Part shown: positions 48,001 to 54,000 of the stretch, piece after piece | Numbering within the stretch: position 1 is the first letter of the stretch | Layout of the letters: each line of letters opens with the position of its first letter | NCBI RefSeq assembly: GCF_013167455.1 | Contig: NZ_CP038328.1 | DNA length: 64,000 nt | From: Escherichia coli O157:H7 | GTDB taxonomy: Bacteria; Pseudomonadota; Gammaproteobacteria; Enterobacterales; Enterobacteriaceae | Reading direction: 5' to 3' (one strand) | Position numbers: made by a program

Positions 48001-51000
48001 TATCACCAGAACTGGGGTCTGGTCGCCTCTGTTACGTATATGCTCCAGCAGTTTAAGCCCGTTCATTCGTGGCATCGCGATATCACATATCATCAGGTCT
48101 GGAGTGAAACCTCCCAGCAACTCAAGGGCATCCACCCCATCAGCCGCCAGTACCGTTGTCGCTCCCAATGAGGAAAACCACGAATCCAGAAGCGAGCGAA
48201 ATACCTGCTCATCTTCAACAATGAGAATCTGTTTTCCGACCAATGGCTGCGTCATGTTCTCTCCCCTGACTGGCTTTACTCAATAGTGGCATGCTATTGC
48301 CACCTGCGCCTGTCAGAATTAACTTAAGTGTAGATAAAAATTCTGGTCAAATGTTGGTGCGTACCAACGGCAAAAGTTCGTCCATTTTCTTTTCCACTGC
48401 CAGCTGCCCGGCCGCAATGGCAGCGTGCGCGCGATGGAAATCAAGCGTAGATATTTGCGGGCAAACAGGTTGAATCAGAATATCGGGCGGATCACCTGCC
48501 ATGCGGTTCCTTTTAAGGCGGTTCTCCAGCACCTGGATAGAAGTGGTCATAATCTCTGTTGCCGTTGGTGCTGTCACCGCCCGACGTGTCGTTATACTGC
48601 CTAACCTTTCTTTCAGACGCGCATGCCACGGCAGAGAATCACCATTCTCGCTATTTTCTTCACTGACATTAAAGGAGAGCAAATCTTGTTGCATCAAATG
48701 AGCATCGTGCTGCAGGTCGACCGCTATCACAATATCAGCACCCAATGCACGCGTGAGCGAAATAGGAATTGGGTTAACGACTGCCCCATCAACCAGCCAG
48801 TAGCCGTTATGCGCAACGGGTGCCATTAGTCCTGGAATACTGCATGATGCGCGAATAGCAAGATGGAGATCGCCTTCAGTAAACCATAATTCACGCCCAG
48901 TACTTAAATTGGTGGCAACAGCCGCGAAGCGACGGGAACAATTTTCGATCTCTGTTTCCGGCATTATTTCGCGGTATTGATTGAAGACACGCTCGCCGCG
49001 CAGTAACCCACCGCGCTGCCAGGAGAGATCCATCAGTCGTAAAACATCCCAATAACTGAAAGAGGTCACCCAATCTTCCAGCGCAGATAATCGATCGCAT
49101 GCATAGGCCGCGCCCACCAGCGAACCAATTGAACATCCTGCAACGATATCAATTTCAATACCCACTTTTTTTAGCGCATTAATAACGCCAATATGCGACC
49201 AACCTCTCGCCGCGCCAGATCCCAGCGCCAGCCCTATTTTTATCTTTCTCATTATTCCCGCAAGATTCCCCTGGAATGCAATCGTAGCCACATCGCTACT
49301 GCTCGGTTAACATAGTGCTACTCAGGCGGTTAATACGCCGTTATTGTTTCCAGGGAGATTATTTGTGTCTCAGCTTTGTCCCTGTGGTAGTGCTGTCGAG
49401 TATAGCCTATGTTGCCACCCTTATGTGTCTGGTGAAAAGGTTGCACCTGATCCAGAACATCTCATGCGTTCGCGTTACTGCGCTTTTGTGATGCAAGACG
49501 CAGATTATTTAATAAAGACCTGGCATCCATCTTGTGGAGCAGCGGCGTTACGTGCCGAATTGATTGCCGGATTTGCGCATACTGAATGGTTGGGATTGAC
49601 CGTATTTGAACATTGTTGGCAGGACGCCGACAATATCGGATTTGTCAGTTTTGTTGCTCGATTTACCGAAGGTGGCAAAACAGGTGCAATAATTGAACGT
49701 TCGCGATTTTTGAAAGAAAACGGTCAATGGTACTATATTGACGGTACACGTCCGCAGTTTGGCCGCAACGATCCCTGCCCTTGTGGTTCAGGTAAAAAAT
49801 TTAAAAAGTGCTGCGGCCAATAATGGTTGACGGTACGGTTTAGCAAACACTCTCAACAAGGTTTTTCCAGCAATGCATTCACTCCAACGTAAAGTTCTGC
49901 GTACTATTTGTCCGGACCAAAAAGGTCTGATCGCACGTATTACCAATATTTGCTACAAGCACGAGTTAAATATCGTACAGAACAATGAATTTGTTGATCA
50001 CCGTACCGGGCGCTTTTTTATGCGCACGGAACTGGAAGGGATTTTTAATGATTCCACCCTGCTGGCGGATCTCGATAGCGCATTGCCAGAAGGCTCCGTG
50101 CGTGAGCTGAATCCTGCCGGTCGTCGCCGGATAGTGATTCTGGTCACTAAAGAAGCGCATTGCCTTGGCGATTTGTTGATGAAAGCCAATTATGGCGGCC
50201 TGGATGTCGAAATCGCGGCAGTGATTGGTAACCACGATACTTTACGTTCTCTGGTTGAGCGTTTTGATATACCGTTTGAGCTGGTAAGCCATGAAGGGTT
50301 AAGCCGCAACGAGCACGATCAAAAGATGGCGGATGCCATTGATGCTTATCAACCTGACTACGTGGTGCTGGCGAAGTATATGCGGGTATTAACACCGGAA
50401 TTTGTGTCACGCTTCCCGAATAAGATCATCAATATTCACCATTCCTTCCTGCCAGCGTTTATCGGCGCACGTCCTTATCACCAGGCCTATGAACGTGGCG
50501 TGAAGATTATTGGCGCAACCGCTCACTATGTGAATGACAATCTGGACGAAGGCCCAATCATCATGCAGGACGTTATTCATGTCGATCATACCTACACAGC
50601 TGAAGATATGATGCGCGCAGGTCGTGACGTCGAGAAAAACGTCTTAAGTCGCGCGCTCTACAAAGTACTGGCGCAGCGCGTCTTTGTTTACGGTAATCGG
50701 ACGATTATTCTTTAATCGCCAGCAAAAATAACTGGTTACCTTTAATCCGTTACGGATGAAAATTACGCAACCAGTTCATTTTTCTCAACGTAACACTTTA
50801 CAGCGGCGCGTCATTTGATATGATGCGCCCCGCTTCCCGATAAGGGAGCAGGCCAGTAAAAAGCATTACCCCGTGGTGGGGTTCCCGAGCGGCCAAAGGG
50901 AGCAGACTGTAAATCTGCCGTCATCGACTTCGAAGGTTCGAATCCTTCCCCCACCACCATGATTCACCACAGCGATGTGGTAACTTCGGTGAGATTGTGA

Positions 51001-54000
51001 AAGTTTGCACTCATCGGGGAAGGGTGAGAACCTTCGACTAAGGTTCGACTCGAGCGAAAGCGAGAGAACGTTTTCACAGGCAACGGCCCGAAGGGTGAGG
51101 AGCGAAGCGACGAATAATCCTTTCCCCACCGCCATCTCAAGCATTACCTCAAAATTTGAATTACCCCTGGTGGGGTTCCCGAGCGGCCAAAGGGAGCAGA
51201 CTGTAAATCTGCCGTCATCGACTTCGAAGGTTCGAATCCTTCCCCCACCACCATCACTTTCAAAAGTCCCTGAACTCTCAAGCGAATCCGTAAATAAATA
51301 TTCTGCCCAAGCGGCGAAGGATGAGAAGCTTCGACTAAGGTTCGACTCGAGCGCCAGCGAGAGAGCGTTGCCGCAGGCAACGACCTGAAGGGCGAAGCGC
51401 GCAGCGCTGAGTAATCCTTCCCCCACCACCATCACTTTCAAAAGTCCCTGAACTCTCAAACGAATCCGTAATTAAATATTCTGCCCAAGCGGGGAAGGAT
51501 GAGAAGCTTCGACCAAGGTTCGACTTGAGCGCCAGCGAGAGAGCGTTGCCGCAGGCAACGACCCGAAGGGCGAAGCGCGCAGCGCTGAGTAATCCTTCCC
51601 CCACCACCATCGCTTCCTGAAATAATCAAAACCTGTTACTCCGAGCTAATTTTGCCCAATGGCACCACGTTTACCGGACCTACAATATCCTCCCTTGTAG
51701 GTCGGATAAGCGAAGCGCATCCGACAACTCACCCCGCACCGTGCCCATAAAAAAACCCCGCCGAAGCAGGGTCTATGTGAACTAAAATTCGCTTAGTGAC
51801 GAGCGCGCACCAGCTGGTACTTACGTGTCAGATACTCCACCGGTACGCTCCAGATGTGTACCAGACGCGAGAACGGGAACAGCAGGAATAACGTCATCCC
51901 CAGCACCAGGTGTAGACGGAAGATAAACGCCACACCATCGAGGTGTTGAGAAGCGCCACCGTGGAAGGTCACTACCGACTGCGCCCAGCCAACCAGTTTC
52001 ATCATCTCGCTACCGTCCATATGTTGGGCGGAGAACGGAATGGTCAACAGGCCCAGCGCGCACTGGATAACGAGCAGCGACAGGATCAGTATATCCGCTC
52101 CGGTAGTCGTTGCACGCACGCGTGGGCTGAACAGACGACGTTTAAGCAAAAGCACGCCGCCAATCAGACACAGCACGCCGCTGGCACCACCAGCAAACAT
52201 CGCCATTTTCTGTTTCACTTCAATCGGCAGCCAGGCTTCATACATCCAGTGCGGCGTCAACATACCGAAGAAGTGACCGACAAAAATCCCCAGAATACCG
52301 ATATGGAACAGGTTCGACGCCAGGTTCATCCCTTTGCGATCCAGCATCTGGCTGGACGCCGCGCGCCAGGTGTACTGCCCGTAGTCATAACGCAGCCAGC
52401 TACCAATCAGGAAGACCGCCCCGGCTATGTACGGGTAGATATCAAAGAAGAACATATTCAGGAATTGCATTAGTGCTGTCCTCCGGTGGTGATATTCAGA
52501 TATTGCGGCGCGACGGCACCGGCAAAGCGACGCTGATGAGCAGTGATTGCTGAATCACCGCAGCCTTTGTCAGCAAAGAATTTAACCTGCTCTTCTTCCC
52601 AAACAGCATCCAGCGCCTGCGGCGTATCATCGCGCGCTTCGTCGGCAATTTTTTCCGCCACTTTGTCGCTGTCGATAGCGGTATTGGCCAATTTCAGCAG
52701 CAGATCAAACAGCACGGCATAACGGCTTTCACGCTGTTGCAGACGCGCACTCAGCAATGCCAGAATCGGCGCGATATCTTTCAAACCTTCCACGGCTTCG
52801 CTTTGCGGCAGCTGCGCCAGGTACTCCAGATACAGCGGCAGATGATCCGGCAATTCGCGGCTGTTTAACTGCAAGCCGTGCTGCTCGTACTGCGCCAGCA
52901 GGTCCACCATCGCCTGGCCGCGGTCGCGGGATTCGCCGTGCACATGTTCAAACAGCAACAGTGACGTGGCGCGGCCACGGTCGAACAGTTCGCTGTACTG
53001 CGCCTGGGCATCGAGCGGATCCATCGTCGTTAAATCGCGCAGGAAAATGCCCAGCGCATGGGCATCCTCTTTTGGCAGATTTTTCGACGCGGCAATCGCC
53101 TCAAACATCTCTTGTTGATGCTGCCATAAGGCAGCATCCGGATATTCAAGGAGACGCGATACAATCACGAGTTCGATCATGGATGCGGCTCCGTTTTGCT
53201 GGTCACATCGATGGCATCGATACGACGGCTGTTGAACAGATTGAATTTGGTATCTGAACCGTGGCAGCCATCACCAAAGGTAAAGCCGCAGCCATTTTTC
53301 TCCGGGAAGGCTTCCCGTGCCAGTTCACGATGACTACTCGGCACCACAAAGCGATCTTCGTAGTTAGCAATCGCCAGATAACGGTACATCTCCTGTGCCT
53401 GGGCTTCGGTCAGACCGACCTCTTCCAGCGCACGGGTATCAACTTTACCGTCAACGGTTTCAGCACGTTTGTAATGACGCATCGCCAGCATACGTTTCAG
53501 CGCGCGCAGTACCGGTTTGGTATCACCGGCGGTCAGCAGATTCGCCAGATACTGTACCGGAATACGCAGGCTTTCGACGTCTGGCAGAATGCCGTTGCTA
53601 CCCAGCTCACCCGCGTCTGCTGCAGACTGAATCGGAGAGAGAGGCGGCACGTACCAGACCATCGGCAGTGTGCGATATTCTGGATGCAGCGGCAGCGCCA
53701 GTTTCCATTCCATTGCCATTTTATAAACCGGCGACTGCTGTGCAGCTTCAATAACGCTCAGCGGAATACCGTCTTTAATCGCCTGCTCGATGACTTTCGG
53801 ATCGTTCGGATCGAGGAACACCTCCAGCTGACGCTGGTAGAGATCTTTCTCGTTCTCGGTGCTGGCTGCACGTTCAATCGCGTCGGCATCGTACAGCAGC
53901 ACGCCAAGATAACGGATACGACCGACACAGGTTTCTGAGCACACGGTCGGCTGACCCGCTTCAATACGCGGATAGCAGAAGATGCACTTCTCAGACTTAC

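Follow-up and report, generated by a model that had tools for sequence, protein, structure and literature searches.

The window analyzed here, a stretch of 64,000 nucleotides (nt) of Escherichia coli O157:H7 DNA, contains two tRNA-Tyr genes followed by tandem copies of a 178-nt unit, and we identify this region (50875-51615) with high confidence as the chromosomal tyrT-tyrV operon with its RtT (rttR) trailer repeats. The segment 50716-51792 was 100% identical to an E. coli O157:H7 chromosome record, in which the RefSeq features from purU to narI are a tRNA-Tyr, an RtT small RNA (sRNA), a second tRNA-Tyr, and two further RtT sRNAs. When the same segment was aligned with the tyrT region of an MG1655 derivative of K-12, the identity was 97.96% over 1077 positions and the one gap was exactly 178 nt. 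In addition to this near-identity, the synteny purU - tyrT - tyrV - repeats - narI is present in the window. A covariance-model search with the Rfam family RF00391 (RtT RNA), also run on the whole window, detected three copies above the curated gathering score of 45 bits, all of which span model positions 1-130 of 130. The E-values ranged from 5e-25 to 5e-29, which places the repeat observation far beyond chance. The copies agreed with the family in score, in their position on the tRNA strand, and in conserved structure.

The repeats had been regarded as a known feature of this locus in an earlier note made from the sequence alone (hereafter, the original prediction), and the K-12 alignment, the RefSeq annotation and the Rfam matches of all three RtT copies bear this out. 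Its interpretation is supported as essentially right, with only numerical details off. The locus is already known, is textbook material annotated automatically by RefSeq and Rfam, and is no new discovery; the repeat can therefore be labelled as a known locus in a genome scan and set aside.

Anatomy of the operon

The array is made of 2.14 tandem 178-nt units (51235-51615). For the same interval, Tandem Repeats Finder reported a period of 178, 2.1 copies, 96% matches and a score of 713, and a repeat search placed two copies of the 178-nt family at 51235-51412 and 51413-51590 with 96.6% identity, and, in the spacer of tyrT and tyrV, a further copy of 61% (50938-51115). Counted from the end of tyrV, repeat unit 1 (51254-51431, + strand) consists of a G-poor 47-nt linker (51254-51300) and a 131-nt RtT body (51301-51431; Rfam 125.9 bits), the last part of which is a tail corresponding to the tRNA-Tyr 3′ end (51413-51431). 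Repeat unit 2 (51432-51609, + strand) has the same composition, with the linker at 51432-51478, the RtT body at 51479-51609 (134.2 bits) and the 19-nt tail at 51591-51609. The original prediction had each unit of ~178 bp end in the last 17 nt of tRNA-Tyr; the period was correct, but both full units match the tRNA 3′ end exactly over 19 nt (AATCCTTCCCCCACCACCA). A partial (0.14) repeat closes the array, and its last 6 nt (51610-51615, + strand, from the repeat search and the Tandem Repeats Finder end coordinate) form with the preceding 19 nt the fifth copy of a 25-nt motif from the tRNA 3′ end (AATCCTTCCCCCACCACCATCACTT), the copies of which lie at 50941, 51116, 51235, 51413 and 51591.

Both tRNA genes were detected by ARAGORN on the + strand as tRNA-Tyr(GTA). 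The first, tyrT (50875-50959), is 85 nt long, scored 53.4 bits with the Rfam tRNA model and is annotated by RefSeq in the identical record, and the second, tyrV (51169-51253), is identical to it. Between them is a 209-nt spacer (50960-51168, + strand), delimited from the sequence and the alignment to the K-12 spacer, which contains a diverged RtT copy (51004-51134, + strand; Rfam 117.9 bits). The view that the spacer is a diverged copy of the unit held over this 131-nt RtT part, where the identity to the downstream RtT bodies was 79%, but not over the first ~45 nt, where it was ~35%. In the spacer copy, the tail (AATCCTTTCCCCACCGCCA) has two mismatches in this strain and none in K-12, and a stem is weakened by a mismatch and a wobble pair, the sequence being GTTTTCA here and GTTGCCA in K-12. 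The distance from the preceding element to the start of the RtT copy is 44 nt behind tyrT and 47 nt behind both tyrV and unit 1, and all copies are on the + strand, as are the tRNAs. Base composition within the window differed between the two parts of the unit, with C/G of 2.4-3.0 and 34-36% G+C in the linkers against 62-63% G+C in the RtT bodies.

Upstream of the tRNA genes, purU ends at 50715 (+ strand). A promoter scan found the sigma-70-like tyrT promoter at 50797-50824 (+ strand, 10/12 matches), composed of a -35 TTTACA, a 16-nt spacer and a -10 TATGAT with TG, and directly 3′ of it the sequence has a G+C-rich stretch (GCGCCCCGC, 50825-50833, + strand). This promoter-like site is ~41 nt upstream of the mature tRNA 5′ end, a position that presumably fits the known tyrT leader. 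The span first given for the feature, 50950-51612, does contain the repeats, but its start falls within the last 10 nt of tyrT, so that most of this gene and the promoter were omitted, and the repeat ends at 51615. On the + strand, the terminator scan found no site resembling a hairpin terminator after the array; the only nearby terminator-like hairpin (51774-51753) belongs to narI, behind which it lies on the - strand. An 18-nt inverted repeat resembling a REP element (51668-51712) is located in the DNA that separates the array from narI.

The repeats of the K-12 tyrT operon (tyrT-tyrV-rttR/tpr) were reportedly first described in 1978 and 1981. This operon and the window are alike in the purU and narI flanks, the promoter, the two identical tRNA-Tyr genes, the 209-nt spacer with its RtT-like copy, and the 178-nt units ending in 19 nt of the tRNA. 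The main difference is the unit number, because the 178-bp unit is repeated 3.14 times in K-12, with four RtT annotations including the spacer copy, and 2.14 times in the window, with two full units. The body of unit 2 in the window is 100% identical to that of K-12 unit 3. Compared with K-12, three additional substitutions are present in the spacer copy of the window, two of which fall in its tRNA-like tail, and the 29-codon tpr frame is kept in no window unit.

RNA structure and the tRNA-like tail

Judging from compensatory pairing changes and from conservation across units, the RtT body clearly behaves as an RNA under selection for structure. Using an alignment of 135 distinct units (A2), we tested an explicit structure against versions with the pairing partners slid by 1-3 columns and against 500 shuffles. 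In the explicit structure 95.6% of the cells were paired, compared with 36-51% when the partners were slid. Seventeen pairs were changed on both sides, in 159 cells versus 29.5 in the shuffles, and none of the 500 shuffles reached any of five measures. These changes were found in the hairpin of columns 50-56/61-67 (4 of 5 pairs), that of columns 70-76/81-87 (all 7 pairs), and that of columns 101-105/116-120 (all 5 pairs). The last of these, located near the 3′ end of the RtT body (window 51579-51583/51587-51591 in unit 2), often has tandem G.A pairs; the Rfam 15 consensus line of RF00391 shows no pairing at these columns. Hairpins with tandem G.A/A.G mismatches occur in many units. Conservation was likewise concentrated in the body, for which the mean identity across species was 85%, compared with 58% for the linker.

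The closing helix, in which GGGGAAGG at the 5′ end pairs with CCUUCCCC of the tRNA-derived tail, encloses the three hairpins and is nearly invariant; in Pragia, a changed tail (CCTTCTCC) is compensated by the 5′ arm (GGAGAAGG). An Rfam-style structure was paired in 96.9%; its long-range helices (columns 33-37/96-99 and 45-48/91-94) are compatible with the data and showed no both-side changes in the 135 units. The RNAalifold consensus, in which the closing helix was one position off and the last hairpin was omitted, was set aside for the explicit structure.

Over 22 nt (86%, 19/22), the 5′ arm of RtT also complements the tRNA in its T-arm and 3′ acceptor strand. The minimum-energy fold of tyrV with unit 1 uses this pairing; its ensemble frequency is 0.0013, and it is a thermodynamic prediction that ignores co-transcriptional folding of the tRNA. 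We also considered the RtT body as an internal remnant of the T-arm of the tRNA, based on the shared CTTCG...AAGGTTCGA, but the observed local alignment score of 19 was not significant, 106 of 2000 shuffles having scored as high.

Across species, sequence comparison showed that the tail follows the variants of whichever tRNA lies nearest upstream. In some genera, tRNA-Tyr ends in a variant sequence, CCCCCGCCACCA or CTCCCACCACCA, and 24 of the 25 units located behind such variant genes carried the matching variant tail, while at loci with canonical tRNA genes only, neither variant tail was found in any unit. The RtT fold leaves the last ~8 nt of the tail unpaired, so that their match to the tRNA needs an explanation of its own. 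Gene conversion or unequal exchange along the unbroken homology formed by tRNA end, linker and body is one candidate; selection for a tRNA-like 3′ end is another, and the data are compatible with either.

Unit number and distribution

The two-unit state of the window is a common allele. When a single repeat unit was used as the query against 5,426 complete E. coli genomes, 9,957 places were found in 4,626 genomes, ranging from 1 to 9 per genome with a mean of 2.15 where any was present, and ~800 genomes (~15%) had none. In an evenly spaced sample of 60 records, 1, 2, 3, 4 and 5 units were present in 21, 16, 18, 3 and 2 records, respectively. Strains differ by whole 178-nt steps, as expected if unequal crossing-over occurs between the repeats, and instability of duplicate genes at the tyrT locus belongs to classical genetics. 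Such strain-specific unit numbers, two in the present case, can mislead short-read assembly and typing. Rearrangements of other kinds were observed as well. Strain Z1002 has five units and no spacer copy, with only 34 nt between the two tRNA genes. In ST131 (E. coli O25b:H4, NZ_CP015085.1) there is a single tRNA-Tyr, and an unrelated seven-gene cluster between it and narI (L125 38367-45248) has taken the place of the spacer, of tyrV and of all RtT units. This cluster encodes a KAS III-like protein, an epimerase, an MBL hydrolase, an F390 synthetase-related protein, a PAP2 phosphatase and two desaturases, and no integrase gene is among the seven.

Outside E. coli, a pattern scan of one genome per species gave at least 120 loci, and the further unit counts and the alignment draw on the matches listed. 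Among these, ~110 were enterobacterial loci, and the remainder had no RtT match and resembled chance matches. The genera among the matches listed include Citrobacter, Klebsiella, Salmonella, Enterobacter, Pectobacterium, Brenneria, Pantoea, Serratia, Sodalis, Pragia, Xenorhabdus and others. In all of these ~110 listed loci, each RtT unit follows a tRNA-Tyr(GTA) gene or a preceding unit on its own strand, at a distance of 44-60 nt. Acerihabitans arboris (L010 523-1035) and a Sodalis sp. (L056 5863-6332) have RtT units between tyrU and glyT in the thrU-tyrU-glyT-thrT cluster, indicating that in these two genera RtT joins tRNA-Tyr genes at a second chromosomal locus. Two records that are not titled as Enterobacterales, Chryseobacterium sp. 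18061 (L123) and Martelella alba (L051), contained a typical enterobacterial tRNA-Tyr with RtT, and contamination or misclassification of these assemblies is possible. An Enterobacter contig (L015) showed a weak partial RtT match upstream of tRNA-Gly.

A homologue behind another tRNA was found in a Cellvibrionaceae contig from a metagenome-assembled genome (JALUYN010000029.1, L037 2804-3054). It scored 57.4 bits with Rfam, lies 58 nt behind tRNA-Gln(TTG), and ends in 19 nt identical to the 3′ end of this tRNA. A degenerate second RtT copy follows the first, and then an open reading frame, which may be the beginning of a prs-like gene. When metagenomes were scanned for RtT-like cores of the non-Tyr type (CTTCGB), the only results were the same contig and two other matches, which were discarded, one having no tRNA and resembling a chance match and the other having neither a tRNA nor an RtT match. 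In Pasteurellaceae, members of the RtT family are known to adjoin Asn and Lys tRNA genes (PMC4986893).

Proposed expression, alternatives and other features

We propose that the whole region would be transcribed from the tyrT promoter as one precursor, from which tRNA-processing nucleases would release the two tRNAs and up to three RtT RNAs. The ...CCACCA tail and the closing helix would give each RtT RNA an end that resembles a mature tRNA, transcription would end by the action of Rho within the repeats and not at a hairpin terminator, and both the change in copy number and the tracking of the tail may arise from unequal crossing-over and gene conversion in the homology formed by tRNA 3′ end, linker and body. 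The single promoter-like site upstream, the location of tRNAs and units on one strand, the lack of a terminator-like site on the + strand after the array, and the G-poor linkers are compatible with this proposal. Termination within the repeats is said to be Rho-dependent, as reported in 1978 and 1981. Some sRNAs are cut from external or internal transcribed spacers of tRNA precursors, for example 3′ETS-leuZ. As a comparison from general knowledge, RtT is similar to these sRNAs in being a stable RNA from the non-tRNA part of a tRNA operon transcript, but unlike them it is tandemly repeated and has at its terminus a copy of the 3′ end of the tRNA. To our knowledge, no base-pairing target of RtT has been described.

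According to the statements in which PMC3318445 and PMC4986893 cite Bosl and Kersten 1991, rtT RNA is encoded by the repeat unit of the tyrT operon, is released from the transcript, and may modulate the stringent response. Other literature on rttR or rtT RNA consisted mostly of unrelated matches, and no new function was found in it. Several points weigh against the proposal of released, structured RtT RNAs shaped by recombination. Units are missing from ~15% of the complete E. coli genomes, and ST131 has the tyrV and RtT segment replaced. In a screen of biofilm, motility and fimbriae, overexpression of RttR changed none of its listed traits (PMC4606813). RtT RNA is thus dispensable, and any function that it has is subtle. 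The transcript model for the O157:H7 strain is, moreover, inferred from the K-12 literature, and the match of the tail could reflect selection for a tRNA-like 3′ end instead of recombination.

An alternative that is possible, although we consider it doubtful, is that the units act only in cis, as a platform for processing and Rho termination of the tRNA-Tyr precursor, and not as free RNA. RF00391 is indeed typed as Cis-reg in Rfam, the C/G of 2.4-3.0 in the linkers is as expected of Rho loading sites, and a hairpin terminator was lacking on the + strand; the complementarity of the 5′ arm to the T-arm and acceptor strand, used in the predicted fold of tyrV with unit 1, would also suit such a role. 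However, the low ensemble frequency of this thermodynamic prediction and the three covarying hairpins, which a terminator would not need, argue against it. So does the discrete rtT RNA product in the literature, as far as the citing statements describe it, together with the detection of RtT RNAs on Northern blots in Actinobacillus (PMC4986893).

It is less probable, and in our judgment unlikely, that unequal crossing-over at a duplicated tRNA gene produced the repeats as a by-product without function, transcribed as a trailer whose RNA has no role of its own. The variation in unit number from 0 to 9, with ~800 of 5,426 genomes having no unit, the loss of tyrV and all units in ST131, the lack of a listed phenotype of RttR in the overexpression screen, and the changes that weaken one stem and the tail of the spacer copy in the window are all in line with this view. 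It does not account for the position of RtT being kept in several families of Enterobacterales, for the far better conservation of the body than of the linker, for the three hairpins that keep pairing through both-side changes beyond all 500 shuffles and the slid controls, or for the homologue of the same architecture behind tRNA-Gln in a Cellvibrionaceae genome.

The proposal of released RtT RNAs could also be extended. Tails copy tRNA-Tyr variants in Enterobacterales and tRNA-Gln in Cellvibrionaceae, and the nearly invariant 5′ arm complements the same tRNA. On this basis, though we regard it as quite unlikely, tRNA-trailer RNAs of the RtT type might form a general class in Gammaproteobacteria and work together with any tRNA that happens to precede them. 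If true, RtT would be more than a by-product of recombination and might serve as a decoy or competitor for tRNA 3′-end enzymes, or, by pairing with the pre-tRNA upstream, as a switch.

A coding reading, in which the units encode the small basic protein Tpr (29 amino acids) and the repeats are copies of its gene, is very improbable. In K-12 unit 1, the frame from the ATG of GGATGAGAA is open for 29 codons, and a preprint names tpr, for a protamine-like protein, in the K-12 operon region. However, in the three copies of the window this frame is closed by a stop after 5, 5 and 9 codons, and among 152 Enterobacterales units, 29 codons were kept in only 7, while 93 stop after 5 codons and the others at many lengths. 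The variation fits RNA pairing and not a reading frame. No open reading frame of the tpr type on the + strand was present in the list for the window, and RefSeq annotates no coding sequence here in the O157:H7 and K-12 records. The historical tpr gene is absent from this strain, and the coding reading is rejected.

Integrative elements leave direct repeats of tRNA 3′ ends, but it is extremely improbable that the five motif copies within 700 nt are att-site scars of a tRNA-targeting element or a CRISPR-like array, because the copies are 178 nt apart and the intervening DNA is itself repeated (96.6% identity), leaving neither unique spacers nor cargo, no integrase, transposase or cas-like open reading frame was found between purU and narI, and the same arrangement is ancestral to the whole bacterial order. 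As a CRISPR array, the locus fails in that the whole 178-nt period is repeated, with no unique sequence between the 19-25-nt motifs; as a tRNA-targeted integrative element, it has neither an integrase nor kilobase-scale cargo between purU and narI. The warning in the original prediction not to mistake the repeats for a CRISPR array or mobile element was thus well founded, given the lack of unique spacers and of integrase or transposase reading frames.

Other RNA features were observed elsewhere in the window. Rfam matches to AgvB (7591-7650, + strand) and STnc100 (7652-7860, - strand) adjoin genes for tRNA-Arg(TCT) (7970-8046) and tRNA-Met (8127-8202), both on the - strand, and the region 7591-8202 presumably represents a tRNA/sRNA module of the kind found in an O157:H7 lambdoid prophage. 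Two further matches were on the - strand. One is an ALIL pseudoknot (13329-13445, 121.5 bits), the element with which an IS3-family insertion sequence directs frameshifting, and the other is a sok antitoxin RNA (14142-14291, 103.9 bits), part of a module of the hok/sok type.

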